Counted from the first letter of the stretch, positions 25,760 to 52,244 are shown. The stretch: DNA of 52,244 bases from Bacteroidaceae bacterium (GCA_045645045.1 JAZRIA010000208.1:1-52244), one strand, 5' to 3'. Numbers and translations are program-made. The notes: generated by a model not told the origin, from the letters alone.

Positions 25760-25910
25760 AGTAAAGTAGCATTTGTTGCCATATCATCCTTTCTCGCAAG
25801 AGAAAACAAGAGGAAACAGGAACTGTCTTGGTTGAGAAACATCGCCATCATAGATTAACAATCAAGTTTAACCAAGACCGACCTTTAACCCAAAACGAGG
25901 CTTCATTACA

Positions 25911-28433: not shown

Positions 28434-28504
28434 AAAACTTATTCTTTTACAAGCAAAGATACGGAAAAAAGCATTAACGCACAAACCTTTGTCCGCCATT
28501 TGTC

Positions 28505-29089: not shown

Positions 29090-29103
29090 AATGGATTAAG
29101 CGG

Positions 29104-29359
29104 AGGACCCACCCCCAGCCCCTCCACAAGGGAGGGGAGTAGGATGTACTGCTATTGGGGAGAGATTTGTATTGTTGTGAACACGGCATGACGTGTCGCT
29201 TGATATTATTCTATTTTTCGGACTCGTCATGCCGAGTCCCTACGAAGCTAAATCAATAGCCAAAAGTAACCACTCCACACTCCTGGAGAAAGGTTGGGAG
29301 AGAGTCCGCTCTCGGCTGTAATTACTCCCTCCCCTTGCGGGAGGGTTGGGGAGGGGTCC
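29104..29359. repeat. MITE-like GC-rich structured element with about 37-nt imperfect terminal inverted repeats
   Basis: 29104-29140 (ggacccacccccagcccctccacaagggaggggagta) matches the reverse complement of 29323-29359 at 29 of 37 positions. Each end is itself a hairpin. Internal inverted repeat ggcatgacg / cgtcatgcc. Confidence 0.5.
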
Positions 29360-29369
29360 AGGCAAGGGT

Positions 29370-31736: not shown

Positions 31737-31831
31737 AGGAATCCTTTCTCTTCGTCGTTCGTAATCACCGTTACGAATTACTGGTTGGAAAATTGGCCCG
31801 TTCCCTATACCTTATTTATATTATAAGGGAA

Positions 31832-31933
31832 CCAACCGTTCATACTCTCTACGCCGGCACTACCCGGTTCAGATCATTTGAGGGTATATTCTCAGCAAGG
31901 CCAATATCAGCCATGCACCCCTGATGACGTTGG
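31832..31933 (-). promoter_or_regulatory. TPP (THI-box) riboswitch
   Basis: Minus-sense reads CCAACGUCAUCAGGGGUGC...GCUGAGAAUAUACCCUCAAAUGAUCUGAACCGGGUAGUGCCGGCGUAGAGAGUAUGAACGGUUGG. The conserved GGGGUGC, CUGAGA, ACCC and GAUCUG...GCCGGCG blocks are present, and P1 closes as CCAAC/GUUGG. Confidence 0.85.
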
Positions 31934-31964
31934 CAAAGGTACGAATAAGTGAGAGAATAACAAA
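31934..31964 (-). promoter_or_regulatory. Promoter of the riboswitch/TonB receptor/PnuC operon
   Basis: Minus-sense TTTG-N19-TACCTTTG, immediately upstream of the riboswitch. Confidence 0.6.
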
Positions 31965-31993
31965 ATAATGCTTGCATTAATTTTGCTATTCCG

Positions 31994-32050
31994 AACGGAA
32001 GTACCTTCGACCGCCAGGTCAAGGGTACAAATAAGTGAGAGAAGTACAAA
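31994..32050 (-). repeat. Duplicate promoter-plus-leader module, copy 2
   Basis: Minus-sense TTTG-N19-TACCCTTG (32020-32050), followed by the shared leader ggtcgaaggtacttccg. The spacer is about 27/31 identical to the promoter at 31934-31964. Confidence 0.5.
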
Positions 32051-38000: not shown

Positions 38001-38116
38001 CTTACCTCCTTATCACCCACATTGGTCAACGAGGCAAGGTCGTCTTCGGTGCAACCTGCCACAAGCATGCCCGTCAGGAGCAGTATGCCCAGTATGCGTA
38101 TCCAGTCTTTTATCAT
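35009..38116 (-). CDS. Large type V pilus accessory/tip lipoprotein (fimbrillin-like N-terminus, lectin-like C-terminus)
   Basis: 1035-aa ORF with lipobox LVAGC. Fimbrillin strand motif IMLERLDAKVEVNVRV and a THYKYTINIKG segment. The C-terminal modules carry VRWYQAATNQLLGL...SVRCVRN and YRVPNIREAALMTL. Confidence 0.6.
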   Translation of the reverse strand: MIKDWIRILGILLLTGMLVAGCTEDDLASLTNVGDKEVRVALSFGSKEHEEIRVTTRGTYELHHESMVRNMYVFLFADGKKVYGRYFDDDDLDQTGNKEYWEVQNMSSDGSTDQTSGTLHICVPAVSGAGAEIVLIANIDLDFMNMSEDRLGLVRSQDELNALMVSLNQELPERNAGFFMMTGNRSGVSIYEDGSITVPGGKIMLERLDAKVEVNVRVNPTEQTNNQRVEDFTPESWQVINLPNSSLLMPSQSGLASSDDVFFNTQPKTFETTENELVNGNPTGGVLYGFSFYTLENLKSDDKKKSVEGNYHNRDRRIKYTDDPEAGNYGKYNTEGGMWEYAPEQATYMIIKGELKMLVDPGLTTEQHLVADVTYVVHLGDFASDKDNYDIVRNTHYKYTINIKGVDNIEVEVETSNDGTDGVIENQSGAMGNVYSVEEEVYTFDAHYGQRVYTFSASSINIDAMTWYVKTPFGREGIPVKDPLTGQDIYNDLDYKWVEFCVNDMQADGTYSFRNKAYPGIGHESLMDVVEFMAFLKAEKIKYEANQDNAFDKDGNLRITIFVNEFYYEVDPMNPNNKPQDLWKRFVNQPNRLMHILCESAFSKDGDSSITGSIVTIRQRSIQTPYNLKNADLMTAWGCETIDEKTSNYGFYDKSESVTYAPASFEFLNNDSPDNGLYNTLGLWGLNRGGSMAEGVRWDTYLDYDRENDYNLIWMKDNYAVMRWSTMMRNRDNNGNGIIDPDEVRWYQAATNQLLGLYIGELGVSNDSRLYNTAYAVPGSTDGYRTFRRHVLSSTKCSENNSVQDFWAEQGIVTTRYRVDYYDNYGEPFRPHLSVRCVRNLGMDNPTKENILKKEENLPHPLVVVNCMEGEGTANAVYSFDLRNVNEESLRYYTTKELLPTNEFSTSARTYRGFVTGGLTSIRQTTGTVTTFNEYNNLKNQLENNESPVTQETYRVPNIREAALMTLYIKNDNWWGNDATMVSTYTALGQTSVGGLGLENGNSWCFGGNNYIVQNENVHGRKRIIIRHVKDWEPE

Positions 38117-38128
38117 GTAATCTTACTC

Positions 38129-39661
38129 TCAGTCAAAAGTTATATCACCCTCCACTTCATCCCAGTCCGATACCTCGAACTCTATTTCTCCGCTCTTTTC
38201 GTTATAGGAAACATTTACCACAATGTTTACAAAGTCATTCCTCCTGATGCTCTGCATGGGAACGGATTCGCCCGTCTGCTTGTCGACAGTAGTAACAGGT
38301 ATCGTTGCCTGACGGGAAACATCACTGTTCACCGTGGTGGCATTAACCCTATACAGACGAAATCTCCTGCTGTTACCAGACGATGCACCAATCGGGTTGT
38401 TATTATTCACGGCAAGATAATAATTGCCCGACGTTGACCTCATATGCATGTAGGAATTGGATTGCGAAAGCGTGAAATAGTCATTGTTACCCGGAGTGCT
38501 GGTCATGGGCACAGCATTGTTCTTCACCGCAGAACTCCTGATGTAGTAGCCGCTTCTTCCCATGGACTCTATCCTATAGTTGTTTCCGCTTACCTTGATA
38601 AATCGCCACACGCAATTGTGGTTCAGTTCGTCATTGGTCATATAGGAAGTGGCTGACGACAAGTTGTTTGAACCATTGTCGTACAGATATTTTTGGGCAT
38701 TGAAATTGTACACAACATACAGACCTCCGTCGACCACGCTGTTAGGATTAGTTATATAGTTCTGGTCCACCGAATAGACGGTTTCCGTAACTCCTCCACC
38801 ATACTTCAATCCCAAGGTGTACTGATACTGTCCGCCATTGCTCTCCAGCATGTAGGCATCAAAGATGGTGGACTCGGTAACACTATTTCCATCACCTATT
38901 CCAGGAACCATCATATCCTGCACAAAGGGAGTGACGGCATCGCTGGATGTTGCCAACGGTTTGGCATTGGCAGTACCGCCCTCCTCAAACAGTGGTGCGG
39001 TGCTTTGCGTGAATCTGTTGGCAAAACTCAAGTCAGTAATCTGCAAGTCTGCCTTGCTCTGATTCCTTATATTTATACGCACGCGTGCGTAAGTCCTGAC
39101 CAATTCCCCCGACACCGTATTCATACCGGGCTGCAGGGCAATTTCCTTTTTCAGTGTCAAAGGATATGGCGTTGCCTTTGGGCACAAGGCTGATGTTGCC
39201 GACGATGCCACCTGCATGCTTCCCGTCACATCGGTTACGGATGAGAGATGTCCGCTTGCCTGTGTGCCGTAATCGCCGTAGTTTGCCACGGCATAGAGCT
39301 GGTAGGGCTTGCTGTAATCCAAGTTGTCGAAACTTACCGTCGCTTCGGTATTACCGTTGGCCATGCGCACGTCTCCCTCCTCCAGGACTGCAGACTCTAC
39401 CACAGCACCGTCCCTGACCAGAAACACGGCAAGTCGATACATGCGTCTTCCGTCTATAACCTCTTCAAGCTCAGACACCGTGCCGTTATCGTCAAGGTCC
39501 TCAATGCCTCGTGTCTCCATACGCACGTCAGCACTTTTGAATGATATGGTCAACGATGTCCCCGACATCAGTCCCCCTTCGTTATACTCATGCTCGCTGC
39601 ATCCGCACAGCATCAGCACGGAATACAGGATGGCGAGGAATGGCAGTAACCTTCGAATCAT
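38129..39661 (-). CDS. Fimbrillin-like lipoprotein with inserted beta-trefoil-like module
   Basis: 510-aa ORF with lipobox MLCGC, motif GELVRTYARVRINIRN and a C-terminal W tail EFEVSDWDEVEGDITFD. A three-fold pseudo-repeat spans residues about 311-440. Confidence 0.6.
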   Translation of the reverse strand: MIRRLLPFLAILYSVLMLCGCSEHEYNEGGLMSGTSLTISFKSADVRMETRGIEDLDDNGTVSELEEVIDGRRMYRLAVFLVRDGAVVESAVLEEGDVRMANGNTEATVSFDNLDYSKPYQLYAVANYGDYGTQASGHLSSVTDVTGSMQVASSATSALCPKATPYPLTLKKEIALQPGMNTVSGELVRTYARVRINIRNQSKADLQITDLSFANRFTQSTAPLFEEGGTANAKPLATSSDAVTPFVQDMMVPGIGDGNSVTESTIFDAYMLESNGGQYQYTLGLKYGGGVTETVYSVDQNYITNPNSVVDGGLYVVYNFNAQKYLYDNGSNNLSSATSYMTNDELNHNCVWRFIKVSGNNYRIESMGRSGYYIRSSAVKNNAVPMTSTPGNNDYFTLSQSNSYMHMRSTSGNYYLAVNNNNPIGASSGNSRRFRLYRVNATTVNSDVSRQATIPVTTVDKQTGESVPMQSIRRNDFVNIVVNVSYNEKSGEIEFEVSDWDEVEGDITFD

Positions 39662-39677
39662 CTTACAGTTTCTCTCC

Positions 39678-40913
39678 TTACATTATGATGTCATGGACAG
39701 AATCCAATCTGTTCCAATCAGCTATAGTCAACTTTAAATCCACACTGGCACCGTTTATCTCCAGGATATAGGTGTAGCGTTTACCATACTCGTACTTTAT
39801 GGCAGGTATGTCCACACTGAACACATAGCTGCCAGCACTGTTCATGGTGTAGCAGAACTGCAGGGTGCCTCCTTGTACCTGTTGAGGTACTACCAGAATC
39901 CAACCGTCGTTCTGTGTATATTCTTGTCCCGCAGCGCCGCCATTGGACGTGTACAGGATGTTTTCTGTGGCAATGGGCAACCCTGTGTGTTCCCATTTAT
40001 ACATGGGTGCCGACGAGGACTCGTAGGTGTACCATGTTATCTCCGGATTCACGTTGCCGGTATGCACCAGGTATCCGGATGGCGAGAACAGGTTTGTTGC
40101 CGTTCCCTTGTTCTGCAACCAGCAAGAGGTTATGCCCTCTCCGCTTGGCGGTGTGTATCCGTCTGCCGCCCTCACCTTGAATCTCAGTGCGGCAAAGATA
40201 TGCTCCATATTCAGAGGAACAGGCCCAGAAGGCATTTCCGTCTGTATGTCCACATGCGTTGCGGCCACCAGCATATCTTCCTGCAGTTCGGAAGTGTTGA
40301 TGGGACCTCCCTGCATAATGGTGGCTTCCATCTGTGTCATCAGGCTTGTCATCAGTGCCTGTGGGTAACAGGCACGGAAGTCGTATTGCGAGTTAGTTAC
40401 CCATAAGCGTGTCTCACTGAGATAATTCCAGTCGTTGTACGGATTGGTGTACTCTGCCTTTGCCACATAGATCAATGGTTCGGCATTGAACACGCTATAG
40501 GTGCGTTCCTGCCCGTCCTCGGCGGTGGTGTACTGTCCCCATATGCCTATGCTCTCGTAATCGCCATACACATTGGGGGTACAAGCCTGGCGCAAAACGT
40601 CGTCGTCCACCAAAGCCCTTGTATTGGGTATTGCTACCTGCTGTATGCTCCAACTGATGGAACGTGCCGCCATTGGCTCGGTGGGAGTCCCTGCAAGTGG
40701 CAAGTTCTCCGCGTCAGAGCAGCATGCCAGGGAAAGCGTCAGGCCTATCAGACACAGGCACACAAGACATGCCTTGCACGCCACACGGCATGCAGCCAGT
40801 ACTCTCGTAGCGGTACTGCAGTACTCTCGTAATGGTACTGAGGTACTCTCGCAATGGTACTGCTGTACTCCTACAGAGGTGTTCTGGTGTGTACTGGATG
40901 TCTTGATAGACAT
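39678..40913 (-). CDS. Fimbrillin family lipoprotein (start uncertain: ATG 40913 or GTG 40784)
   Basis: Signal/lipobox CLVCLCLIGLTLSLAC, motif NMEHIFAALRFKVRA and tail IADWNRLDSVHDIIM. The 5' part of the ORF contains a hairpin and 22-bp repeats, so the GTG at 40784 (MACKACLV...) is a plausible true start. Confidence 0.6.
   Translation of the reverse strand: MSIKTSSTHQNTSVGVQQYHCESTSVPLREYCSTATRVLAACRVACKACLVCLCLIGLTLSLACCSDAENLPLAGTPTEPMAARSISWSIQQVAIPNTRALVDDDVLRQACTPNVYGDYESIGIWGQYTTAEDGQERTYSVFNAEPLIYVAKAEYTNPYNDWNYLSETRLWVTNSQYDFRACYPQALMTSLMTQMEATIMQGGPINTSELQEDMLVAATHVDIQTEMPSGPVPLNMEHIFAALRFKVRAADGYTPPSGEGITSCWLQNKGTATNLFSPSGYLVHTGNVNPEITWYTYESSSAPMYKWEHTGLPIATENILYTSNGGAAGQEYTQNDGWILVVPQQVQGGTLQFCYTMNSAGSYVFSVDIPAIKYEYGKRYTYILEINGASVDLKLTIADWNRLDSVHDIIM
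40799..40872. repeat. About 3.3 tandem copies of a 22-bp unit (GTACTCTCGTARYGGTACTGNN)
   Basis: Units at 40799-40820, 40821-40842 and 40843-40864, plus a partial unit at 40865-40872. Seven GTAC cores in 74 bp. Confidence 0.75.
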
Positions 40914-40947
40914 TTGCCTGTTTCTGAACTTTGTCATTATTGATTTA

Positions 40948-40982
40948 TTTCCCTGGGCATCCCATACAGACACCCAGGGAAA
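40948..40982 (-). terminator. 10-bp GC-rich stem-loop just after the major fimbrillin gene of locus A (attenuator or stabiliser candidate)
   Basis: tttccctggg / cccagggaaa perfect stem with a 15-nt loop. There is no clear U-tract on the minus-sense RNA. Confidence 0.4.
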
Positions 40983-41005
40983 CATTAAATAGCATATATC
41001 CTTGA

Positions 41006-42154
41006 TTACAATTCAACCACTATAACTTCATGGTCTGTCCACTCTGCAGCACCGGGAGCGAAGTAAATTCTATCCTGGTCGGCAGCAGCCTTGCCATAAA
41101 CCAAACGGTAAGTATAACGTACACCAGGATCCCAAGCAGGAACAGGATTGCCAAGGACATCTATACCAGCACTCAATTTTGCAGTCTTGCTTCTCTCACT
41201 GCCGTTAACAGTATATGTTACCACAACTGTAGCATCATCTGTTAGCGTCTGAGGCATCAACAACAGCTGGTTGCACTTCTCGTCCTCGCTTGGTGCGTCA
41301 GTATCTTCAGCAGCCAATTGAGCAACATAGAAGGGAACGGCTTGGAATTGTACGTTACCTTGGAAACCGATATAGGCAGCGTCTGATGCAATCTTATCGT
41401 CATCCACGGTCCACATTGGATTTTGTGCATTAGTAGCCTCATTCAATTGCTCCTTAAATGTACCCTTATACTTTACACCAAATACCTTGATAGACGTCAA
41501 AAACACATTGGCTTCGCTCTCGTTCTTGATAGAGAAACGTACAGAACTCAATGCATGCTTGAAATCAATGGGTATACCGCTATAATAAGAGGCACCGTCC
41601 AACATATCTTCAGCAGTCATGTTCAAAGTTCTGGTGCTGTAAAGCAAGTCATAATGATGCTCGGCATTACCATTTACCTCGAAATTTTCAATGGTTACAC
41701 CGTCTGCCCCATAAGTTCTGGTTGCACCTGCACACTCAAGGTCTGCAGGAGATGAGGCAGCGAAAGACATCTTGCCAGAAGGCCAATAATAATAGCCACC
41801 ACCATCTGTCTTGGGAGCCCAACCATCCACATTCAGGTCGTACTTAACTTCCTTGCCGTTGATTTCATGTTTTGTGGCTGATGTCCAACCAGCGAAATCT
41901 CCGTCGTGCTGAACAGCATAAATCATGAAATCTTCCTCCTTGGGATAGTGGTAGATGGTAGAAGAGCCAGAATACATGTGATCACCGATTTCACCATAGA
42001 AATTGGCTCTGGTGCCACCGTTTGACTGCATCAAGGGAGAAGAGAAGGTCAACTTGGCCGGTTCCTTCACACCCTGTTCGCCAACTGTCTCGTCAGACAC
42101 GCAACTTGCAAATGCCATGCCTGCTACCAAAAAGAAAAATAAATTCTTCTTCAT
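41006..42154 (-). CDS. Fimbrillin family lipoprotein, probable major stalk subunit of locus A
   Basis: 382-aa ORF MKKNLFFFLVAGMAFASC with motifs YYYWPSGKMSFAASSP and IDFKHALSSVRFSIK and tail AAEWTDHEVIVVEL. Confidence 0.7.
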   Translation of the reverse strand: MKKNLFFFLVAGMAFASCVSDETVGEQGVKEPAKLTFSSPLMQSNGGTRANFYGEIGDHMYSGSSTIYHYPKEEDFMIYAVQHDGDFAGWTSATKHEINGKEVKYDLNVDGWAPKTDGGGYYYWPSGKMSFAASSPADLECAGATRTYGADGVTIENFEVNGNAEHHYDLLYSTRTLNMTAEDMLDGASYYSGIPIDFKHALSSVRFSIKNESEANVFLTSIKVFGVKYKGTFKEQLNEATNAQNPMWTVDDDKIASDAAYIGFQGNVQFQAVPFYVAQLAAEDTDAPSEDEKCNQLLLMPQTLTDDATVVVTYTVNGSERSKTAKLSAGIDVLGNPVPAWDPGVRYTYRLVYGKAAADQDRIYFAPGAAEWTDHEVIVVEL

Positions 42155-42239
42155 AACGTTTAATTTTGTTGGTTAATAAAGTTTATAATAGTTTATATCT
42201 CAATTCTAATTTACAGGTCCTCGCTTCAACGGTATCTAT

Positions 42240-43298
42240 TCATAGCATTATACCCGCTTCGACATCGTTCCAGTCATCCACACCAGGTGTCATTCCACCG
42301 CCAGAGCCATTCATCGGAGGCAGCAGTTCTATCTCCTTCTCAATCAGGATCCACTGGTTGTCGCGTACCATGGGAGTGGAGAACATGTCGGTGACGTCTA
42401 TTTCCTCCACCTGCGATGTTCCGTCCCTCTTCATGAATTCGAAGGACACTGTCAGCATGTTGGATTGCTTTGGCAGCTTGCCAAAAGTGTGGAACGTGGT
42501 ATAAAGCACAGCATTGGAACTGCCGTCATCAGCATTACGATGTCTGGAGGCCTGCTTCATGGAGAAGAGCACATTGATGTCATCAGTCTCCACAAGACCC
42601 TCATGCCTATGCAGCAGAGAAGAACCTGCCATGCCGCTCAGCAGCGATACAGCCGATGTGGCCCACTCGATGCCCTTCACCTTCAGCTGTATGTAGTAAC
42701 TCTTCACCAAGCTGTGTGCCTTGAAGTAAGAGCCGTCGGCACGGCGCAATGTATCCAGAGTAGGACTGGCACACACCGTTATGCCCTCCACTACCTCGTG
42801 AAACAGGTGGTCGGGCTGCTCTCTTATGCTCTCCGGTCCCTTTGTCTGGCTCATGGATGGAATGTACTGGTAGTAATATTCGCTCACGGCCGAGGTGTAT
42901 GCTGTCATGGCATAATAGTCGTTTGGATTGCTTATCATGGTATATGCACATCCATAACTGTAGGCAAGCATGTTGTATGTACCAGGAGGCAGATTTATAT
43001 ATCCATGTATGTAGTAGCCATGCTCGTCGGTTCCCTGCTCCTGGATATAGCGTTCAGTCACCACCTTTCCTGTATTCGGATCGGCTGCCACCACACGCAT
43101 GGCTCTCGGGCGAATGTATTCGGGGCGCTCGTATGCCTCGTTGTAGAAGCCACAGGTCATGTTCTTTATATCCTCATCTATATACACACGTACATACCGT
43201 GCGTTCACTGGCGTTTCCAACGGGCGGTGCTCGCAGGACATCAGCGAGAATGCCATGGCACATGCACACAGGAGCGCAAAGAAGAAGCTCATCCTCAT
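42240..43298 (-). CDS. FimB/Mfa2-like (DUF5119-like) pilus anchor/terminator lipoprotein
   Basis: Start at MRMSFFFALLCACAMAFSLMSC, overlapping the upstream stop (ATGA). Tail GGGMTPGVDDWNDVEAGIML. Paralogous to 51351-52244. Confidence 0.6.
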   Translation of the reverse strand: MRMSFFFALLCACAMAFSLMSCEHRPLETPVNARYVRVYIDEDIKNMTCGFYNEAYERPEYIRPRAMRVVAADPNTGKVVTERYIQEQGTDEHGYYIHGYINLPPGTYNMLAYSYGCAYTMISNPNDYYAMTAYTSAVSEYYYQYIPSMSQTKGPESIREQPDHLFHEVVEGITVCASPTLDTLRRADGSYFKAHSLVKSYYIQLKVKGIEWATSAVSLLSGMAGSSLLHRHEGLVETDDINVLFSMKQASRHRNADDGSSNAVLYTTFHTFGKLPKQSNMLTVSFEFMKRDGTSQVEEIDVTDMFSTPMVRDNQWILIEKEIELLPPMNGSGGGMTPGVDDWNDVEAGIML

Positions 43299-44557
43299 TT
43301 GAGGCCTCCTTTCTTCTTTGTCGTCAACAGTATGGGGTATACCAGGGATACCTGCAACTTGGTTGGCCCGAAATAGTGCCATCGTCCGTGCTTCACCGGG
43401 TCGCGCCACAGGATTTCATAGTCCTCGCTGGGTTCATACTTGCGGTAGGCTATGGAAGCATAGCCCACGGAAATCGAGAACTCCATATTCAGACGTCTGC
43501 CCAAGGGCATGGAGTAACCATAACTCAGTCCCACGCTCCAGTGCTCGCCCTGGTGGCAGATGTCGCGTCCCCATTCGAAGTCCCATTTTCCTGACTCTGC
43601 ATACAGGCCCACGAAGTGTCCCATCAGTTTGTCGCGCTGCACACTCTTGCCCATCTGCGGACGTGGCTTGGGTTTGAACCACCAGCGTCCCTCGGCTCCT
43701 ATGCTCAGGAAACGTATACAGTACTGATTGTCAGCCTCACCCCATCTCCACCATGGGAACTGATGGTACCATAGTGCAGAGAACCTCTCTGTAATAGGCA
43801 CCTCTATGGAGTAGTTTAGCAGTGTCAGTGCGTCATACAGCAGGTTGGTCTTCAATGCCATAATGGTGGTCTTCTTCCTCAACACGGTATCCACCGGCAT
43901 CAGCATGGAAGGTCCGGGTACGGGCAGTGTCTGCAGGCCTACTTTCAATTCAGGCATCGTGTCTGGCACGAATTCCTGTATGGGCTGGTACACACATAGC
44001 CATGTGGCCAGACGCAAGGCAGGCATGTGGTGACGGATTATCCAGTTGTATGTAAAGCCGTTGTCCAGCTGTTTCAGCCTCCACTTCTTTGTCTCTGCGG
44101 GAATGTCGGCACGCATGATTTTCATCACGCGGTCCCTGTTCTTCAGATGGTAGTTTGCCTCCAGTTCCTCATACAGGCCCTCCCAGTTCTCTCCCATGGG
44201 ATGCAGGATAATGTTCTGGGGCAGAAGCACACTGTCGTTGGGCAGATTGGCAAGGATGAAATCGCGTGCCACCTCGGCACGACGCCTTGCAAGCCAGTCG
44301 TTGCGGTGCGGTGCACCCTCGGGCGAGGCATAGGCATAAATGGCAATGCTGTCTATTCGTGGCGAGCGGGCCAGTATGTTCCTGATGCGCTCCATCTGCA
44401 CGGCATTGTCCAGATAGTCTTCCTGCAGGTCTATGCGGTCGCAATAATAATATAGGGTATAGCGGTCGCTGTTCACACTATCCACCTGGCCATAGGCACG
44501 GCCTTGATAGCATAAACAAAATAACGAAATTAAGGATACGAATAATGCCCTTAACAT
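43295..44557 (-). CDS. DUF3868 (OmpA-like) + DUF3575 outer-membrane beta-barrel protein heading the pilus operon
   Basis: N-terminus YAYASPEGAPHRNDWLARRRAEVARDFI (OmpA-like). C-terminus ALKTNLLYDAL...GAEGRWWF...SVGLSYGYS (DUF3575-like). ATG at 44557; a GTG lies at 44566. Confidence 0.7.
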   Translation of the reverse strand: MLRALFVSLISLFCLCYQGRAYGQVDSVNSDRYTLYYYCDRIDLQEDYLDNAVQMERIRNILARSPRIDSIAIYAYASPEGAPHRNDWLARRRAEVARDFILANLPNDSVLLPQNIILHPMGENWEGLYEELEANYHLKNRDRVMKIMRADIPAETKKWRLKQLDNGFTYNWIIRHHMPALRLATWLCVYQPIQEFVPDTMPELKVGLQTLPVPGPSMLMPVDTVLRKKTTIMALKTNLLYDALTLLNYSIEVPITERFSALWYHQFPWWRWGEADNQYCIRFLSIGAEGRWWFKPKPRPQMGKSVQRDKLMGHFVGLYAESGKWDFEWGRDICHQGEHWSVGLSYGYSMPLGRRLNMEFSISVGYASIAYRKYEPSEDYEILWRDPVKHGRWHYFGPTKLQVSLVYPILLTTKKKGGLK

Positions 44558-44648
44558 TGCTAACACCTATAACTTTACTCTTACTACACAAAGGGCAATA
44601 ACCGCCCTGTATATCGTAGTATATATAATGTAATATACAATAAGTGCA

Positions 44649-44656
44649 CAAAGTTA
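44649..44656 (-). promoter_or_regulatory. -7 box candidate (TAACTTTG) for pilus locus A
   Basis: Only the -7 element is present, and no TTTG lies at proper spacing. It sits about 90 nt upstream of the start codon. Confidence 0.3.
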
Positions 44657-45148: not shown

Positions 45149-48100
45149 TTAGGGCCTCATCAAATTCTGTTTGCGGTTCTCGTGCTCCTTAATATTTGAA
45201 AATGCAGGATTCTCTTTATTTTGAATATAGATGCTTCTATTTGTCTTCCTGTTAATTTTAATAGGGAACGTCAGTTGTTTAGTTTTGTCCGATGATGTAT
45301 AGAATTCCGGAGCCAAATACCTGCCTCCCCAAGTGGATTCCTTTATCCTCCATTCTCCCGATGGAAGAGCAACTACCCTCCTAATGTTGGCACCATTCTT
45401 GGCTCCTGTAAGAAGAATCTTAATATAATCCTCGTAGTTCACAAGATCGTTCTTCAAATATGAAAACAGGAAGGAAGCATCTTCGTTTTCGTTCAATCCG
45501 GCCTTGATGAATTCCACGAACACCAAATCATATCCCAGTGTGATACATGCATAATTTCCACTCAGTGCATGCTCGGTATCTCTTTCCCATACACCTAATG
45601 TCCAATCACCATCCTGCAAAGCCTCATCATAACGCTTTGGCCCGGTAGTTCTTCCCGGATTTGGATAGTTTATATCACCGTTCGGATAGTCCTCTACCCA
45701 GTATAGGTCGTTGGGAGCATTGAATCCGCTCAATTCCATCTCTGTTGTTTTGGGTAAGGTTATGGATGTATTGGTATGTCCGTTCAAGAAAATATCATCA
45801 GCACCCCAATCGGCCGAATTGTTATACAGTCCGAAATGTGTAATATCAGACAGACTCAGTGTAGTGCTATTATCCATAAATATACCACCACCAATACCAT
45901 AAATAGCATTTCCATTGGATTTCACCAATCCGGATGGTGCATCATAGGTTGCCAATTTAGCTGTAGCATGATAATCTTCATCAGAATTCTTGACAGCACG
46001 ATTGGCTCTTATCAATCCAGCACCAAAATTCATGTCCACACCATTCATCATATAAATGGCACCACCGTTCTTAGCCTCATTGTCTGCGAAAGTGGAGGCA
46101 ATTGTCAAATCAATATTGCCGTTCATACATGCGCCACCTCCAAATTTGGCAGTATTACGCAGGAAAGAACCACCCACGCATGAAACATCCACAGGCGTAG
46201 GTTTTACGTTGAACACATACAGGCCACCACCCAATTCGGTGACAGCATTATCACTGATAAAGGTCTGCTCATTCAGCGTAACGTCACCATCTTCTACACA
46301 TACTCCACCACCATTCTTTGCTTGGTTATAGGTAATATATGCCTTGCCGTTTACCGTAAACGTACCGGCACAAAATATACCGCCTCCACTACCTGATACG
46401 GCATGATTACTATTAGCCAAACTTCCTCCAACAACAATATTACCATTGCTTCCCACCATGAAAGTACCTCCGCCTTGATAAATTGCACCTCCATTGCCTC
46501 CCATTGACGAATTACCGGTAACTGTTGCTGTTCCGTTTAAGTTAAAATCAAAATTTCCAACAGCCATGTAAATTGCCCCACCATTGCCACCAGAAGTATT
46601 ATTCTTCAATTCTGTAGACTTTCCCTCTGGCACAGTAACGTTTCCCTTTACATACAATGCTCCACCGTCTTCACCTGCAGAATTCTCATCAATTATACCA
46701 CCATTAATTTCTGCATTACCCTCTGAAATATAGACGCCGCCACCAGATTTAACAGATTCGTTTGACAATAATCTTGAAGCTCCATTAACAATGAATTTCG
46801 TATTTTCATCCTGAAACGCACCTCCCCCATTATTCTGGGCGATATTGTCCTTTATTTCACCGCCATTTAGTACGATTTGAGGAATACCATTAAGGATCGC
46901 CTGCACTTCCGGATTTGATTCTCCGCCCAAGTCATTTTTTTCTTTATCTGTAAAATTATTCCACGAATCCCATGCCTTATTTTTCATCAAATAGATACCA
47001 GCACCGTCTCCACCAGTAGTATTATTAGCAACTGTACCGTCATTCAGTTCAAATTCAGCCACGGTCACCATCTTGAAATATGATACACCTGTCAGGTTTA
47101 GCATAACAAGAGCAATTCCACCGCCTCCAGTCTCTGCATAGTTACCAGAAAGACTACCTGAATTCATCGTACAACTACCGGCATCAACAGTAATACCGCC
47201 ACCATAACCTGTATTTGCCAGATTATTAGTTTCTTTTGTCGGTTCACTCCAAGAATAAATGCCACCTGTCTCTGAAACTATACATGATTGCAATAAATTT
47301 CCTTTATAAGCATAATTGCCGGTAATATTTGTTCCACCAAGCACCAAATTACCACCAGTATTGATATTTATACCTCCACCACGGCCCCATACCTTATTGT
47401 CGCTTATCTTACCTCCATTCAGGTTTAGCACACAAGTGTAACTACTGTGTATTCCTCCACCTACACCGTCAAGGGCTTCATTTTCGGATATACAGCCACC
47501 ATTCATATTAAATGTTGCAGTACCTGTGACATGCAATCCAGCAGCACCACCCATAATAGAAGTATTATTGTTGATTTCACAATTTTCATTTAAGGTCAAT
47601 GTCGTATTTGTTCCAAGATGTCCACCACCACCATACCACATACACCCATTATCATTAACCGTTGATGCGATAAGTTCATTGACAGGTTTGACTGTTGTGT
47701 TTCCGACAAAATAAAAACCACCACCACGACCAAGATTAGGATTATCCGTCTTTCTATCAGGAACCGAAGTCATTGCACGATTTCTGAGGATGTTGGAATA
47801 AGAAATGGTTGTATTTACGCCACTGTACAGTCCACCTCCATTAGTTGTGGCATAATTATCCTGAATATCACAATAACTAATGTTACAATTTTCTGTCGCT
47901 GACGCATTAACAAAAATGCCACCTCCAGACGTTGCCTTATTCCTTTCTATAACAATACGTGAACTCGCAGTTCCTGTTATTTCCAAACTACCGTCACAAT
48001 TTATTGCCCCGCCATTTACGCCAGAACCTCCAGTAATTGTTCCTCCACCACTGATTAACAGTTTGCCTCCAGATGCCACTTGGAAAATCTGAAAAGTACC

Positions 48101-48322
48101 ATTACCACTAAGTGTCTTCCCATTCAGATTGACCGTCACCGTATGCCCTGCCGCTATGCTCAACGCACCAGTCTGGGTTTGGTTATTATTTAAAATATAT
48201 GATGACCCTGTCAATGCTCCAGATTTTGGCAAAGCAACCTGTCCCCATGTCACTATGGGGACAAAAACAAGCAGCAGTAACTCTAAAGTGCGCAATATAT
48301 TTCTTTTCATACGGTATATCAT
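45149..48322 (-). CDS. Pmp-type (GGAI-repeat) right-handed beta-helix protein, secreted, last gene of pilus locus B
   Basis: 1057-aa ORF with about 20 G-G-[AG]-[IFLVY] motifs (GGAINC, GGGIFV, GGGLYS, GGAIYM x2, GGAIYQ, GGGIFC...). Signal peptide MKRNILRTLELLLLVFVPIVTWGQ has no Cys. It starts 26 nt after the preceding fimbrillin-like gene. The start could instead be the Met at 48310. Confidence 0.7.
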   Translation of the reverse strand: MIYRMKRNILRTLELLLLVFVPIVTWGQVALPKSGALTGSSYILNNNQTQTGALSIAAGHTVTVNLNGKTLSGNGTFQIFQVASGGKLLISGGGTITGGSGVNGGAINCDGSLEITGTASSRIVIERNKATSGGGIFVNASATENCNISYCDIQDNYATTNGGGLYSGVNTTISYSNILRNRAMTSVPDRKTDNPNLGRGGGFYFVGNTTVKPVNELIASTVNDNGCMWYGGGGHLGTNTTLTLNENCEINNNTSIMGGAAGLHVTGTATFNMNGGCISENEALDGVGGGIHSSYTCVLNLNGGKISDNKVWGRGGGININTGGNLVLGGTNITGNYAYKGNLLQSCIVSETGGIYSWSEPTKETNNLANTGYGGGITVDAGSCTMNSGSLSGNYAETGGGGIALVMLNLTGVSYFKMVTVAEFELNDGTVANNTTGGDGAGIYLMKNKAWDSWNNFTDKEKNDLGGESNPEVQAILNGIPQIVLNGGEIKDNIAQNNGGGAFQDENTKFIVNGASRLLSNESVKSGGGVYISEGNAEINGGIIDENSAGEDGGALYVKGNVTVPEGKSTELKNNTSGGNGGAIYMAVGNFDFNLNGTATVTGNSSMGGNGGAIYQGGGTFMVGSNGNIVVGGSLANSNHAVSGSGGGIFCAGTFTVNGKAYITYNQAKNGGGVCVEDGDVTLNEQTFISDNAVTELGGGLYVFNVKPTPVDVSCVGGSFLRNTAKFGGGACMNGNIDLTIASTFADNEAKNGGAIYMMNGVDMNFGAGLIRANRAVKNSDEDYHATAKLATYDAPSGLVKSNGNAIYGIGGGIFMDNSTTLSLSDITHFGLYNNSADWGADDIFLNGHTNTSITLPKTTEMELSGFNAPNDLYWVEDYPNGDINYPNPGRTTGPKRYDEALQDGDWTLGVWERDTEHALSGNYACITLGYDLVFVEFIKAGLNENEDASFLFSYLKNDLVNYEDYIKILLTGAKNGANIRRVVALPSGEWRIKESTWGGRYLAPEFYTSSDKTKQLTFPIKINRKTNRSIYIQNKENPAFSNIKEHENRKQNLMRP

Positions 48323-48348: not shown

Positions 48349-49959
48349 TTACGGCAATGCGGTCTTGATGTCGTCTATTATCCATAGTTTTTTCACATCC
48401 TTGACATGCACGGCCTGCACTGCTATCGAGAAGTCAAGTATTGCATTGGGGACTGGTGGTGCGACAGCAGTCAGCTTGAAAGTCTTGAACAGGGCATCCT
48501 CGCTTGGTATGAAACCTTTTTGTGGTATGGGAAGCATATAATAGTAAAAACCATCCGAACCCTTGCGCCAGTTTCTCGCATTGGTAGTTCCCTCAACAGG
48601 TTCTCCCCCGTTTCCCCAATCCATTACTCCGTCACTCTCTTTCCACGATGCCACAGCGCAGAGACTTCCGTCGGATTCCTCAACGACCCAGTTCCGGATA
48701 ATTGTAGCTCGGACGTAAATGGGAGCCAGGCCTGTGTTTCTGATTACAACATTACTCTTTGTCTTGGTGTCCGAAGAAAGTTGGTCATCCACTTCCGCGC
48801 TTACCTCCTCAGGTGTGGTAATAACGAATGTATACATCCTGCCTTCCTGCCATTCACCGACAACATCCTTTATGGGTTTGCTCAGTTCGTATGTCCTGGC
48901 TTCCGCTTCCGTATCCCATGTATCCTTTATTTTCAATTTGATATATATATATGCCTCCGCATTATCAGTATGGGTCTGCGGCATAAGATAAGATGTGGAA
49001 CCTATCTGCATTCCCGATGTTACGACAAGTGCAGGAGTGAAAACCTGGGCAAAAGTCTTCTTGTCGCTTGAAAGTGACCATTGGGTATCGGATATTCTTC
49101 TGGTACCGCTATACTTCAAGTTCGAGAAATGAATTTCCTCTACGACTCCTTCCGGCATGGTTCCCACCTTCACCTTTACAGCACTCATAGCATGGGACAT
49201 GGCAAAGTTCACCTTTGATTTTGTGTCCCCTGCCAACATCGGATGATCACAAAGCGTAAGAACCACCTGCTTTGACACCTCGGAAGGAACACTGTATGTG
49301 ATAGAAGGCATGTTCTCAGTCACAGACAACTTATAGTCCTCTGTGGAAGCGACACTCCACAGTGTCTTTATGTTTTCTGCATGCGGACTATATGCAAAGA
49401 ACTTTACCCAATAGTCAGGCCCTGGCCAGTATTTGATTGGACTATAGCTGAAATCGTCGTCCACATCCACGTGGGTATTCATCATAAACTGTGCCAATCC
49501 AGTGTTTGCGCCAGTATATCCGGGAGGAGTTGTTTCCGAACCCTTGGTCATAACGTATGAGTATACACCCAAATCGTATTCTGAATCCACATCTGAGGCT
49601 CGTGTGTGTGCAGTCGTATCGCTCTTCGCGTCCTCTGCTGCTATGGGAACTGTCACAGTGGGGATATCCTCCACTATGGCATATATCGTGATGGTGTCTC
49701 CGTTGATGGTTTCGTCAAAGCATACAGGTTCTGTCACATAAACGCTTCGCCTGTCAATAGTATCTTGGTTTTCTGTTCCGGTTCTAGTTTTACCTACCTC
49801 CTGCCATCCTTCCGGCAGTCCCATGCCGAATGTCATCGCATCTGTTGTCTCCAGTGGTTTGTCCGAGAACCATATTTCCTCGGCACACGACGACAGCATC
49901 AGTGTTGCAGCCACAATGCTCAGGACCTTGCAGATACCATAGTTGTTATATCTCATCAT
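48349..49959 (-). CDS. Fimbrillin-like accessory lipoprotein
   Basis: Start at MMRYNNYGICKVLSIVAATLMLSSC. Motifs SPIKYWPGPDYWVKFFAYSP and VNFAMSHAMSAVKVKV. Confidence 0.6.
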   Translation of the reverse strand: MMRYNNYGICKVLSIVAATLMLSSCAEEIWFSDKPLETTDAMTFGMGLPEGWQEVGKTRTGTENQDTIDRRSVYVTEPVCFDETINGDTITIYAIVEDIPTVTVPIAAEDAKSDTTAHTRASDVDSEYDLGVYSYVMTKGSETTPPGYTGANTGLAQFMMNTHVDVDDDFSYSPIKYWPGPDYWVKFFAYSPHAENIKTLWSVASTEDYKLSVTENMPSITYSVPSEVSKQVVLTLCDHPMLAGDTKSKVNFAMSHAMSAVKVKVGTMPEGVVEEIHFSNLKYSGTRRISDTQWSLSSDKKTFAQVFTPALVVTSGMQIGSTSYLMPQTHTDNAEAYIYIKLKIKDTWDTEAEARTYELSKPIKDVVGEWQEGRMYTFVITTPEEVSAEVDDQLSSDTKTKSNVVIRNTGLAPIYVRATIIRNWVVEESDGSLCAVASWKESDGVMDWGNGGEPVEGTTNARNWRKGSDGFYYYMLPIPQKGFIPSEDALFKTFKLTAVAPPVPNAILDFSIAVQAVHVKDVKKLWIIDDIKTALP

Positions 49960-50052
49960 ACGGTTATTTATTGCATAGGGAGCGTTTCTCCCCAAAAAGT
50001 GGTGATTGGGAGGGGACATTCAACCCCGCCCAACCTATAGCATCATTAAAAT

Positions 50053-50095: not shown

Positions 50096-51268
50096 TTAAA
50101 TATCAGAATCGGGCCAATCAACATTGCTATCAGAATCAATTGGAGTTTCCCAATCAACTACTGATGCCGTAAAGACAATTTCATTCAAATTAAATGTCAG
50201 CACAAAGTTATATGCCTTACCCTGTTTCAACAGTCCAGCAGGAACCTCTATTTCCTTTACTGCTGATGATACTGAATGATTGTTACTCAATTTGGTATCA
50301 TTTGTTACAATATCATAATGGATGCGCATATAAACCTTGTTGCTTGCACCTGTACCATCTGCTGTTGGGGGAATCAAGAACAAATAATTGTTCGCACCAA
50401 AAATCAACTCTGGGTCATCGTCCTCCAAGAGGAAACCTTTTTGTGTATATTCAGAAATCCAACTAGCATCGTTATTGCTTACCAATACAGAACCTGTCTC
50501 TCCTGCTACAACATTCAAAGGAGATGCAGCAGCTGTGTAAGTCCATGCGCCCTTGGCATTTGAAACATTAGCAAACTTGTATGTTGCCTCAGTAGCAAAA
50601 CCTGTGCCAGTAAAATCAATCTGCTTGATATTTACCTTTGTCTTGTTATCGGCTGTTCCATCAAAAGCATCGCGATCCAATTTTGCAGTAATACCCAAAC
50701 GTGTAAGTTCATGCTTAAAATCAAATGTAACAGTCTGATTTGAGTTATCTGGATTAACACTAGCCAGGCCCTTGCTTTCATCCATTATCACATCTGCAGT
50801 GAAATCTGCCAACTTGTCCAATTTACCTGTATTAATGGTGTATGTTAAAGTGGGAGTTCCTGTGGCTGTATTTGCGCTCTCTACCGCAATACCATTATCA
50901 CCATCATAATAAGGAGCAAAGGCGAAGAAAGAAATATACTCATAGGTATTCTTTGTAGGCCAATACTTCTTGGGAGAGTATGTCCAAGGAGCAGAAGTAG
51001 AGGTTCTTTCCACCTTTTGGTTGTACATGAAATTAGGCTTTGCTGCGTCTGTCCACGTTGCACCACTAGTATAAAAAGCATACACTCCAAAATCCAACAG
51101 ATTGTCATCGTTTAACACCACACCACGTGTCTGTGCATCTCTACCAACATAGGTACCAAACTCGATAGCATTGTCCCGAGGAATGCTAACCATATTTTCA
51201 TCATTTGAGCAGCTCGTCATTGTCAGAGCGGCAAGGGCGATGAGACCCGTAAACAAACTCTTTTTCAT
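50096..51268 (-). CDS. Fimbrillin family lipoprotein, probable major stalk subunit of locus B
   Basis: 390-aa ORF MKKSLFTGLIALAALTMTSC with motifs YSPKKYWPTKNTYEYISFFAFAPY and FDFKHELTRLGITAK and tail VVDWETPIDSDSNVDWPDSDI. Confidence 0.7.
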   Translation of the reverse strand: MKKSLFTGLIALAALTMTSCSNDENMVSIPRDNAIEFGTYVGRDAQTRGVVLNDDNLLDFGVYAFYTSGATWTDAAKPNFMYNQKVERTSTSAPWTYSPKKYWPTKNTYEYISFFAFAPYYDGDNGIAVESANTATGTPTLTYTINTGKLDKLADFTADVIMDESKGLASVNPDNSNQTVTFDFKHELTRLGITAKLDRDAFDGTADNKTKVNIKQIDFTGTGFATEATYKFANVSNAKGAWTYTAAASPLNVVAGETGSVLVSNNDASWISEYTQKGFLLEDDDPELIFGANNYLFLIPPTADGTGASNKVYMRIHYDIVTNDTKLSNNHSVSSAVKEIEVPAGLLKQGKAYNFVLTFNLNEIVFTASVVDWETPIDSDSNVDWPDSDI

Positions 51269-51350: not shown

Positions 51351-52244
51351 TTACATATTAATGTCTACATTTTCTTCTGGTCCCCAATCGTCCACCGTGG
51401 CATCGAAACCACTGCCAGAACCACCTTCCGGTTTTACGTCGGGCAGGGGGGTATCCAGTACCAACTCCAGATTTATGGTTAGTGCATGCACTCCATCCAT
51501 ATCTGCCTTCTTTACGAATGCATCGCCCACCTGGAAGGGAAACTGCAAGATGGTCTTGTTGTCCACAAGGAGCACGTCCAGAATGAAGTTATTCTCTTCT
51601 GCCATTCCCTGATGGTCCGCCGGCAGTCCGAAGCATGATATGCTACCGGATATGCAACCTCGTGTGGGGTCGGCAGGATCCACGGTAACTGACCATTTTT
51701 CCATCAGATGCGTTGCCGTTGTGGTGGTATTCTGTCTGGTTGCCAGCATGCAGCCGTCGGCAAATCCATTTATAGAGGCTCTGGCGGAACGAAGGTTATA
51801 AATGCCCTTCACATACACCTTTACGTTCAGTGTGGAGATTATGTTCAGGGGGACAAGGCTGGAAATGGGGAAAGCCGACTCGTATCGTGTCCTTCCCTGC
51901 TTGGTCTGCATGGCCTGCTGCAGCTTCATCTCGTCGGTAGCCTGCACCATCTCATCCGTCACCACCACATCGGTCTGGCTGTCACAAGCTATCCATTCCG
52001 GCTGCATAATGACAATTTCGTCCTCTGCACGTGTCACATACCACCTGGAGGAGAGTTTGTTGCCCTTCACCACAGCCTTGTAGAACTGGTCCATATCGCT
52101 GAAATACACAGAACCGAACTCAGTGGGGCTTTGGTTGTATACCAGGGTCTTGTATCTGCCGGCAGGCAGGGCCATGGTCGCATAGGATATTTCGTTGGAA
52201 AGCACCGTCCTGCATTGCATTTCAGGATCTTCCGGATATACCAT
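51351..52244 (-). CDS. FimB/Mfa2-like (DUF5119-like) anchor lipoprotein, N-terminus cut by the window edge
   Basis: Collinear similarity to 42240-43298, e.g. LPDVKPEGGSGSGFDATVDDWGPEENVDINM versus LPPMNGSGGGMTPGVDDWNDVEAGIML. Confidence 0.6.
   Translation of the reverse strand: MVYPEDPEMQCRTVLSNEISYATMALPAGRYKTLVYNQSPTEFGSVYFSDMDQFYKAVVKGNKLSSRWYVTRAEDEIVIMQPEWIACDSQTDVVVTDEMVQATDEMKLQQAMQTKQGRTRYESAFPISSLVPLNIISTLNVKVYVKGIYNLRSARASINGFADGCMLATRQNTTTTATHLMEKWSVTVDPADPTRGCISGSISCFGLPADHQGMAEENNFILDVLLVDNKTILQFPFQVGDAFVKKADMDGVHALTINLELVLDTPLPDVKPEGGSGSGFDATVDDWGPEENVDINM

Follow-up and report, generated by a model that had tools for sequence, protein, structure and literature searches.

How is a large protein with neither a lipid anchor nor a known secretion domain joined to a type V pilus? 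The question is raised by a 52,244-nucleotide (nt) stretch of DNA from a Bacteroidaceae bacterium (GCA_045645045.1 JAZRIA010000208.1:1-52244), called the window below, in which an open reading frame (ORF) of 1057 amino acids (aa) directly follows the gene for a pilin. The original prediction had described the encoded protein as a Pmp-type beta-helix protein tied to a type V pilus operon, with no recognisable export or anchoring module. As regards anchoring this has to be revised, as profile methods revealed a matched pair of modules: a SpaA-like domain with an asparagine-bearing tail at the C-terminus of the 1057-aa protein and, on the neighbouring pilin, a BsaA/TasA-like domain without a donor strand, here termed tipC. 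On balance it is considered probable from these sequence comparisons that the tail serves as a donor strand in trans, which would complete tipC and fix the beta-helix adhesin to the tip pilin. The features concerned are the following.

45149..48322, minus strand: gene of the beta-helix protein (1057-aa ORF, stop codon included)
45206..45571, minus strand: SpaA/CnaB-type immunoglobulin (Ig)-like domain, aa 918-1039, with the candidate isopeptide triad K940, E995 and N1035
45152..45205, minus strand: conserved C-terminal tail, aa 1040-1057, ...KEHENRKQN-L-M-RP, the proposed donor strand
45164-45166, minus strand: codon of the near-invariant Asn N1053 in the tail motif V-N-x-M
48349..50019, minus strand: tip-like type V pilin lipoprotein, 556 aa (Pfam Mfa_like_1, E 5e-14)
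48352..48807, minus strand: tipC, aa 405-556 of the tip pilin, BsaA/TasA-like, without a signal peptide or donor strand of its own
48757-48759 and 48784-48786, minus strand: candidate acceptor residues in tipC, the conserved Lys K421 and the conserved acid D412
48242..48322, minus strand: signal peptide of the beta-helix protein, aa 1-27, with a signal peptidase I (SPI) site ...VTWG followed by Q and without a lipobox, read from the sequence
45743..48235, minus strand: right-handed beta-helix region, aa ~30-860, with 18 GG[AG]-hydrophobic PMP/POMP-type repeats

The structure of the 1057-aa protein was predicted with AlphaFold2 (AF2), using a 45-sequence alignment for the full-length model, and a second model was built of the C-terminal domain alone. 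The full-length model (predicted local distance difference test, pLDDT, 90.8; predicted template modelling score, pTM, 0.84) consisted of a beta-helix at aa ~30-860, a conserved linker, a beta-sandwich at aa 918-1035 and the tail at aa 1040-1057. Foldseek matched the domain-only model (pLDDT 84) to the Gram-positive pilin domains of BcpA, the T13/Spy0128 pilin, PilB, FctB and PitA, with E 4e-3 to 0.06 and probability up to 1.0. Pfam SpaA matched the C-termini of 7 of 40 relatives, not that of the query, and DUF7601, DUF5979 and FctA matched others. These matches agree with the earlier assignment of the region to a Cna-B/Ig-type module. K940 is located in the first strand of the domain, E995 in an L-P-x-G-x-W-x-x-x-E motif and N1035 in the last strand. 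Among Bacteroidales members all three residues were present in 42, none in 26, and five were mixed. This co-occurrence suggests the signature expected of a CnaB-type intramolecular isopeptide, in the query's subfamily as well, and the bond is regarded as a candidate. The tail, on the other hand, had low pLDDT (63/42) in the full-length model and no secondary structure in either monomer model; in the domain-only model it was packed on the Ig domain with moderate confidence (pLDDT 84/72).

The Ig domain and tail formed the extreme C-terminus of 86 of 121 first-round homologues. When a profile of this module was searched against 1.84 billion representatives, 485 clusters (50% identity) were retrieved at E<=1e-10, and members of the family occur in Bacteroidales, Firmicutes and Eggerthellaceae. 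Among the best 150 of the 485 matches the module was almost always terminal, in host proteins of 800-1500 aa, and nearly all full-length members among the matches listed were Gly/Asn-rich beta-helix proteins with SPI leaders. The module was also considered as a generic tag on varied passengers; this was rejected, the full-length proteins among 126 listed new representatives being essentially all beta-helix proteins. No significant match was obtained in a sequence search of the PDB with the module profile. N1053 was found to be the most conserved residue of the whole C-terminal region, present in 81 of 86 aligned members and in 40 of 40 rows of alignment A2, with M, L, F or W at position +2. 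An N-x-hydrophobic motif was present within the last 40 aa of 168 of 173 members, with a median of four residues after it, and the extension beyond the Asn motif varied from 0 to 28 residues. The tail takes the form h-x-V-N-x-M in Bacteroidales and N-x-W/F in Gram-positive homologues. Six members (P0210, P0214, P0260, P0268, P0275 and P0272) have an extra C-terminal extension of about 25 residues past the Asn motif, which reads G-x-x-V-T-G-S-Y-I-N-S-x-x-I-x-D-L-x-x-T-T-D-Y-Q-L-K. The invariant columns of the adhesin alignment are Gly, Asn, Ala, Trp and Tyr only, with no conserved Lys, Asp or Glu among them. An intramolecular partner for N1053 is thus unlikely, and an intramolecular isopeptide at this residue was rejected.

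The tip pilin exceeds the stalk pilin by about 150 aa, and tipC directly follows the pilin's last strand. A hidden Markov model (HMM) of tipC was searched against all ORFs of all collected loci. It detected proteins of 187-214 aa encoded directly downstream of the beta-helix homologues in four of four Gram-positive loci (E 3e-18 to 6e-13), and also proteins encoded directly upstream of Gram-positive beta-helix homologues (E 5e-12 to 2e-4), so that the pairing of a beta-helix gene with a BsaA-like domain is kept in these loci. The Gram-positive loci are L009 and L019 (Firmicutes-type contigs), L014 (a metagenome-assembled genome, MAG, of Eggerthellaceae) and L018; between them they hold an S26 SipW-type peptidase (L009 and L014), camelysin/TasA-like genes, a Cna_B/LPXTG protein and a sortase (L018 and L019). 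In a profile-profile alignment with hhalign, tipC and the Gram-positive proteins were aligned over 122 columns with 99.5% probability and E 4.8e-23. The alignment started at column 40 of the Gram-positive alignment, just past the donor strand and its invariant N48. The shared signature is K-x-V-x-I-x-N-x-G...A-Y-I-R-A...W...D-G-x-Y-Y-Y...L-F...Q-A-V-Q. tipC starts exactly where the Gram-positive signal peptide and N-terminal strand (G-T-L-A-Y-L-x7-N-x-F-T) end, and neither a SipW-type signal peptide nor an N-terminal Asn donor strand was found in tipC by the profile alignments.

The best NCBIfam match of the Gram-positive proteins was TIGR04090 (BsaA family SipW-dependent biofilm matrix protein), with E down to 1e-15. 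Three of them matched the SipW-type signal peptide model above cut-off, and TIGR04088 and Peptidase_M73 were found above their cut-offs in other members of the Gram-positive loci. TIGR04090 was also the best NCBIfam match of tipC, though a weak one (E 0.018 and 0.003) that began only at profile position ~57. Judged by these profiles, tipC is homologous to BsaA/TasA-like subunits and lacks their donor strand. A tipC profile search of a word-indexed database returned mostly fragments and stand-alone Gram-positive relatives of about 189 aa, not fused pilins. A Cna_B/LPXTG gene follows the beta-helix and BsaA-like genes in L018 (11214-13668), L019 (6563-8492) and L009 (12796-13491), with a sortase in L018 and L019. 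The composition of the Gram-positive loci suggests a hybrid fibre with donor-strand subunits and a sortase-anchored base.

In BsaA of Clostridium perfringens, each subunit lends its N-terminal donor strand to the following one (Kivimaki et al., PMC11580942). The joint is locked by an intermolecular isopeptide between N35 and K74, with E56 as catalyst, and mutation of any one of the three abolishes heat-stable oligomers (PMC11580942). A corresponding N-E-K triad was recognised in 81 stand-alone tipC relatives of about 189 aa: the Asn of the N-terminal strand, the Phe at +2, the Glu and the Lys were each present in 80 of 81. In tipC the Asn-bearing strand is not present. K421 is invariant in tipC and lies seven residues ahead of an N-T-G motif, exactly as in the relatives, and 9 of 10 tipC domains have an acidic residue (D or E) at the position of D412.

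Co-variation of the modules was examined by comparing pairwise identity matrices over 11 loci with the Mantel test. The correlation between tipC and the C-terminal 150 aa of the adhesin was r=0.70 (p<5e-5), and r=0.56 (p=3e-4) when the outlier L030 was left out. By comparison, r was 0.10-0.20 between tipC and the pilin part of its own protein, 0.07-0.36 between the adhesin C-terminal module and its own helix, and 0.35-0.38 between the adhesin C-terminal module and the pilin part. The correlation is higher between the two terminal modules than within each polypeptide; tipC and the adhesin C-terminal module are therefore coupled in transfer or in evolution more closely than each is to the remainder of its protein.

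Synteny was compared in 12 distinct Bacteroidales loci with sufficient sequence and of 27-97% identity to the query (the window, L001/2, L003-5/13, L006, L007, L008, L010/20, L011, L012, L028, L029 and L030) and in the four Gram-positive loci. Scans for related loci had returned seven loci from genomes and eight from metagenomes. Most of the metagenome loci were distant termite-gut beta-helix proteins without either module; the related loci were drawn from Cryptobacteroides and unclassified Bacteroidales MAGs of ruminants. The immediate upstream gene encoded a 490-556-aa Mfa_like_1 lipoprotein in 12 of 12 Bacteroidales loci. The spacing between the tip-pilin and beta-helix genes was -25 to +38 nt, and the genes often overlap. 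The genetic hard-wiring to type V pilus genes that had been proposed for the window was therefore observed throughout the Bacteroidales sample, directly after the pilin gene and over the whole range of identity. The full cassette, DUF3575-DUF5119-pilin of about 360 aa-pilin of about 520 aa-beta-helix, was found in L001, L003, L006, L008, L010, L012 and L013. The most distant locus (L030 2288-7002, encoding P0089, 27% identity) keeps the tip-pilin/beta-helix pair only, flanked by housekeeping genes. In L029 (6488-7984) one in-frame stop separates the pilin part (6488-7612) from the BsaA-like part (7616-7984, E 5e-40). A sequencing error would explain the stop, as would a pseudogene or a natural split that leaves the acceptor domain as a separate protein.

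In the type V model, tip or adaptor pilins lack donor strands, and stalk and anchor subunits donate C-terminal strands (PMC13655056). The pilins of about 520 aa have a lipobox with acidic residues after the Cys, and an A1 strand and Arg site like those of the stalk pilin. Unlike the stalk and DUF5119 proteins, they are without the C-terminal 'DW...' tail. In type V terms, the protein of about 520 aa is a tip-type pilin. The 1057-aa protein would then serve as the adhesin of the tip complex in a type V pilus, taking the role that Mfa5 has in Porphyromonas, with a different build and attachment. The pilin part of the tip protein would accept the C-terminal strand of the stalk pilin in the normal type V way, and the h-x-V-N-x-M tail of the adhesin would replace the missing donor strand of tipC, G-T-x-A-Y-L...N-x-F. 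With the invariant Lys and the acid retained in tipC and the invariant Asn contributed by the tail, an isopeptide may lock the joint. K421 and D412 would come from tipC and the Asn from the tail, giving a possible Lys-Asn isopeptide as in C. perfringens BsaA; such a covalent lock is considered possible, though less likely than not. A second, intradomain isopeptide (K940-N1035, with E995 as catalyst) would probably stiffen the Ig domain.

Several observations weigh against this arrangement. The evidence for docking and for the isopeptide consists of homology, motif resemblance and co-variation, and adjacent genes can co-vary through being inherited together, without contact between their products. 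With 12 Bacteroidales and four Gram-positive loci, few loci were compared. All TIGR04090 matches, those of tipC and those of the Gram-positive proteins alike, were under the curated cut-off, and profile searches gave no PDB sequence match for tipC and its Gram-positive relatives. K421 and D412 were placed via the stand-alone relatives and the published BsaA numbering, and the spacing of the triad from N to E and K is +13/+20 in the relatives versus +21/+39 in BsaA. In the tail of the query, which is strongly basic, the Asn is preceded by Q and not by V. The adhesin of L030 ends in ...VHDESHKID, with Asp in place of the conserved Asn, nothing after it and no Asn-x-Met. The tail is also loosely like the C-terminal donor strands of type V pilins, so that the acceptor could be a pilin groove. 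Finally, the docking model leaves export across the outer membrane unexplained.

Other explanations were weighed as well. The tail could be a classical type V donor strand, entering a groove opened by an Arg protease in the pilin part of the tip protein or in the stalk pilin, which would make the adhesin a 'donor-only' subunit. Type V assembly does work by C-terminal donor strands (PMC13655056), and tails such as ...IKVNPMRP and ...YRVNRMIP resemble the stalk and anchor ends ...YVVNVPNN, ...IAVNVPLN, ...EENVDINM and ...EIEQNIQM. A donor-only subunit would, however, sit at the proximal (anchor) end, which is odd for an adhesin, and the tail is equally conserved in Gram-positive homologues without type V pilins. 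The fused donor-less BsaA-like domain and its stronger co-variation with the module (0.56-0.70 versus 0.35-0.38) would also be left unaccounted for, and the explanation is considered improbable. Slightly less probable still is a purely intramolecular role, in which the tail would be the self-complementing last strand of a stalk domain and the protein would associate with the pilus by other surfaces or by no defined joint. The packing of the tail in the domain-only model is in its favour, as is the intradomain K-E-N covariation, which marks a self-contained CnaB-type unit. In the full-length model, however, the same tail is poorly predicted and unstructured, the adhesin offers N1053 no conserved Lys or acid as partner, and neither the donor-less BsaA-like domain nor the cross-phylum gene pairing would be accounted for.

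The protein could instead be cryptic cargo of the type IX secretion system (T9SS), with the Ig-like domain as a divergent C-terminal domain (CTD), export through SprA and then anchoring to anionic lipopolysaccharide (A-LPS) or later hand-over to the pilus, as with Mfa5. The window encodes a SprA/Sov T9SS translocon (8463-16370, plus strand; a 2635-aa ORF, Pfam SprA_N E 6e-213), and the organism therefore has a T9SS. The leader shows the SPI/Q pattern often seen among T9SS cargo proteins, the C-terminal region is modelled as a beta-sandwich and the analogous tip protein Mfa5 is a T9SS substrate. Nevertheless, the Por_Secre_tail model PF18962 and the models TIGR04183 and TIGR04131 had no match to the 1057-aa protein in the Pfam and NCBIfam searches, and neither T9SS CTD models nor autotransporter models matched any of 40 family C-termini at E<=1. 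In its fold, the domain resembles pilin domains of Gram-positive bacteria and not CTDs. Domain and tail are kept in Firmicutes and Eggerthellaceae homologues, which have neither an outer membrane nor a T9SS, and the conserved motif is trailed by the variable extension of 0-28 residues. T9SS cargo is consequently held to be about as improbable as the classical donor strand. The least probable explanation, and a very unlikely one, is that no physical link exists and that the protein is a co-regulated secreted or periplasmic polysaccharide lyase, hydrolase or free adhesin sharing the operon. It would fit the absence of a standard-type anchor and the weak structural likeness of the helix to PL6 lyases, GH110 and tailspikes (Foldseek, E>0.1). 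It fits poorly with the adjacency of the genes in 12 of 12 loci at 27-97% identity, often with overlap and with the pair-only locus included, or with the BsaA-like pairing in Gram-positive loci and the module-level co-variation; nor did any catalytic family in Pfam or NCBIfam match the protein.

With docking of the tail in tipC as the preferred reading, the earlier remark that the surface route falls outside known rules still applies: the outer-membrane passage of this non-lipidated, CTD-less protein of about 110 kDa is still unexplained. Co-export with a surface-lipoprotein partner is possible, as are an unrecognised T9SS signal and a contribution of the DUF3575 barrel protein encoded at the head of the cassette, the gene for which is not in L030. 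A more far-reaching version combines these elements: a BsaA-type exchange-and-lock joint grafted onto a type V pilus, with a K421-N1053 bond, D412 as catalyst and an adhesin that would have no signal of its own for export and would reach the surface via the surface-lipoprotein route of its pilin partner. This version is regarded as doubtful. If true, it would involve a previously undescribed outer-membrane crossing for a non-lipidated protein in Bacteroidota and the first case in a diderm of a pilus joint linked by an intermolecular isopeptide. In the literature searched, no paper was found that connects TasA/BsaA to type V pili, or PMP-type proteins to fimbrillin operons; this is not proof of novelty.

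The tip pilin and its adhesin form a chimera of type V pili and TasA/BsaA fibres, donor-strand systems unrelated to each other, and it has apparently been transferred among Clostridia, Actinobacteria and Bacteroidales. The mode of integration of accessory tip adhesins, Mfa5 included, is an acknowledged gap in the understanding of type V pili (PMC13655056, PMC7835359). The proposed sequence-defined, mutable joint, consisting of a tail with one near-invariant Asn and an acceptor with an invariant Lys and a conserved acid, would make this integration testable. The locus also sharpens a Bacteroidota problem, namely the surface delivery of a protein of about 110 kDa without lipid, CTD or barrel, and it introduces an uncharacterised adhesin family of gut and rumen Bacteroidales with hundreds of clusters. 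If self-locking, the tail/domain pair would be of interest as a protein-ligation tool.

The 1057-aa ORF begins 26 nt past the 556-aa Mfa_like_1 gene, exactly at the coordinates given in the original prediction. Its likely true start is Met5 at 48310, as the 97%-identical homologue P0001 begins MKRNIL, and the spacing would then be 38 nt. An SPI site followed by Gln is the Bacteroidetes 'Q-rule' pattern. A genuine lipobox was found in 0 of 173 full-length family members, and x-x-[AGSC] followed by Q in 94 of 173. The protein is rich in Gly (15.5%) and Asn (11.4%). GG[AG][IFLVY] motifs were observed 18 times, versus 1.5 expected and a maximum of seven in 2000 composition-preserving shuffles; the exact number replaces an earlier count of about 20. 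FxxN was mildly enriched (10 versus 3.8 +/- 1.8 expected). NCBIfam TIGR01376 (POMP_repeat) scored 28.2, above its cut-off of 15, and Pfam Chlam_PMP PF02415 scored 15.6, under its cut-off of 20.6. Pfam Beta_helix PF13229 is a precomputed annotation in many homologues.

In the AF2 model analysed with DSSP, the region at aa ~30-860 is made of short-strand coils, mostly with pLDDT >90. The weak Foldseek matches of the helix in the PDB (E>0.1) included, besides the enzymes and tailspikes already mentioned, the autotransporter passengers SepA, Ag43, Hap and pertactin. Fold and repeat score together support a beta-helix with PMP-type repeats. The autotransporter barrel PF03797 and the PMP middle domain PF07548 gave no match to the protein at E<=0.1 in Pfam and NCBIfam, and no barrel was present at the C-terminus of the AF2 model, where the Ig-like sandwich of about 120 aa is found instead. 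The designation 'Pmp-type' is hence justified for repeat type and fold, and not for membership of the chlamydial Pmp autotransporter family. Type V pilin features were likewise not found in the 1057-aa protein, which had no Mfa_like_1, FimA or Mfa2 match and no lipobox, and which has a beta-helix fold; the features looked for (a lipobox Cys, an N-terminal A1 strand with an Arg/Lys cleavage site and two transthyretin-like domains) are those of its 390-aa and 556-aa neighbours. A CTD or autotransporter remnant was also considered in the 580-bp gap downstream of the gene; three-frame translation gave stop-rich sequence only. The predicted absence of a T9SS CTD and an autotransporter barrel thus held for the protein and for the C-termini of 40 relatives. 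Homologues were not usually found away from pilus genes, nor was a fold other than a beta-helix predicted, and the coupling of a beta-helix protein to a type V pilus operon stands.

The window holds two tandem type V pilus cassettes, both on the minus strand, and the 1057-aa gene closes the first of them. The order of the first cassette is DUF5119 (cut by the window end), the 390-aa stalk-type pilin, the 556-aa pilin and the 1057-aa gene. The DUF3575 barrel gene expected upstream of the truncated DUF5119 gene lies beyond the window end. The two genes at the head of the cassette are as follows.

51351..52244, minus strand: DUF5119 (Mfa2-like, anchor-type) lipoprotein, truncated (Pfam DUF5119, E 1.6e-21)
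50096..51268, minus strand: stalk-type pilin, 390 aa, with a lipobox, the A1 strand NAIEFGTYVGR followed by an Arg site, and a C-terminal DW... donor tail

The orthologues of the 390-aa stalk pilin in other cassettes are Mfa_like_1 proteins, and the stalk pilin and the pilin part of the tip protein are homologues. The 556-aa pilin has the lipobox LSSC45 and an A1 strand with an Arg site, DAMTFGMGLPEGWQEVGKTR, and is without the 'DW' donor tail; comparison with L010 indicates that it is probably 535 aa long, with the start at Met22. The listed ORFs of this pilin and of a 435-aa pilin (39678-40985, minus strand) extend N-terminally past the signal peptide, and their starts are probably internal. 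Lipoboxes were found in all neighbouring pilus-type proteins (390, 556, 389, 382, 435, 510 and 1035 aa). The 1057-aa protein occupies the slot of the terminal large accessory protein and is alone there in being a non-lipoprotein. Its non-lipoprotein leader among lipobox-bearing neighbours had been noted previously, and this was confirmed with seven lipoprotein neighbours rather than six. The DUF3575 barrel protein is the sole neighbour without a lipobox, and it likewise has an SPI/Q site.

Between the cassettes is the 580-bp gap, with a Bacteroidetes -7 promoter motif, TAACTTTG, at 44649-44656 on the minus strand for the next operon. The second cassette is complete (35009-44566, minus strand) and encodes DUF3575 (423 aa), DUF5119 (389 aa) and Mfa_like_1 pilins of 382 and 435 aa. 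At its end it encodes proteins of 510 aa, weakly matching a ricin-B lectin model, and of 1035 aa, weakly matching DUF4906. Every protein of this cassette except the barrel is a lipoprotein. The terminal 'cargo' genes of type V cassettes appear to be modular. Cassette-heading non-lipoproteins of about 400-425 aa were found in the window (43295-44566, minus strand), L001 (4885-6165), L003 (161-1435) and L012 (2349-3614), and L030 lacks the gene. Their C-terminal half is the DUF3575 beta-barrel and their N-terminal half has a faint OmpA-like match; no description of a role for the DUF3575 protein in type V pili was found in the literature. A gene for an AraC-family (HTH_18) regulator lies just upstream of the DUF3575 gene in L006 (1791-2846) and L010 (278-1333). 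In L012 (1122-2168) a similar-sized gene occupies the AraC position, and the window ends before this position. Elsewhere in the window, 22000-32000 carries GH20, GH95 and TonB-dependent receptor genes, with a GC content of 0.53-0.55 compared to 0.41-0.46 in the pilus region.

Compared with chlamydial Pmp proteins and other type Va autotransporters, the 1057-aa protein shares GGA(I/L/V)-type repeats, the mild FxxN enrichment and the predicted right-handed beta-helix. It differs in having no barrel or PMP middle domain, and in its C-terminal module, genomic context and phylum. With the SpaA/CnaB pilins BcpA, Spy0128, FctB and PitA it appears to share the domain fold, along with the L-P-x-G-x-W-x-x-x-E motif and the co-varying Lys, Glu and Asn, whereas the LPXTG sorting signal and the pilin motif are absent from it. 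Furthermore, the proposed intermolecular bond would be to a BsaA-like and not to a CnaB domain. In principle the joint would resemble SpyTag/SpyCatcher, where an Asn/Asp-bearing strand is locked by a Lys of the partner domain.

The likeness to BsaA/TasA (camelysin, Peptidase_M73) fibres (PMC11580942; TasA PMC9674648) lies in the homology of tipC, which keeps the Lys and the acid of the N-E-K triad, and in the operons of the Gram-positive adhesin homologues, which contain a SipW-like peptidase, BsaA-like subunits and a sortase. BsaA/TasA genes are often found in operons with SpaA-domain, LPXTG and sortase genes (PMC11580942). In the C. perfringens operon sipW-bsaA-bsaB-bsaC, the large accessory adhesin-type protein BsaC, with a von Willebrand factor A (vWA) domain, has a comparable operon role (PMC11580942). 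Unlike these subunits, tipC has neither a SipW signal nor a donor strand, and it forms one polypeptide with a type V pilin lipoprotein in a diderm. Its proposed donor strand would be C-terminal and come from another protein, and no tipC polymer is implied.

Mfa5 of the Porphyromonas gingivalis Mfa1 pilus is a Gram-positive-like, isopeptide-containing tip adhesin that is exported by the T9SS via a CTD (PMC7835359). It is located at the tip, and horizontal acquisition has been suggested (PMC7835359). Mfa5 and the 1057-aa protein are both encoded by the last gene of a type V operon and are both large non-lipoproteins with a non-pilin fold and an SPI leader. Both have Ig-like domains resembling those of Gram-positive adhesins; Mfa5 has an intramolecular Lys-Asn isopeptide and the 1057-aa protein a candidate triad. 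Mfa5 carries a vWA domain and a T9SS CTD, whereas the 1057-aa protein has neither and is built on a PMP-repeat beta-helix, with a conserved Asn tail paired to a BsaA-like domain on the neighbouring pilin. Mfa5 and the 1057-aa protein are not homologous in sequence. By this analogy of position and build, the 1057-aa protein is to be regarded as a functional analogue of Mfa5 and not as a member of its family.

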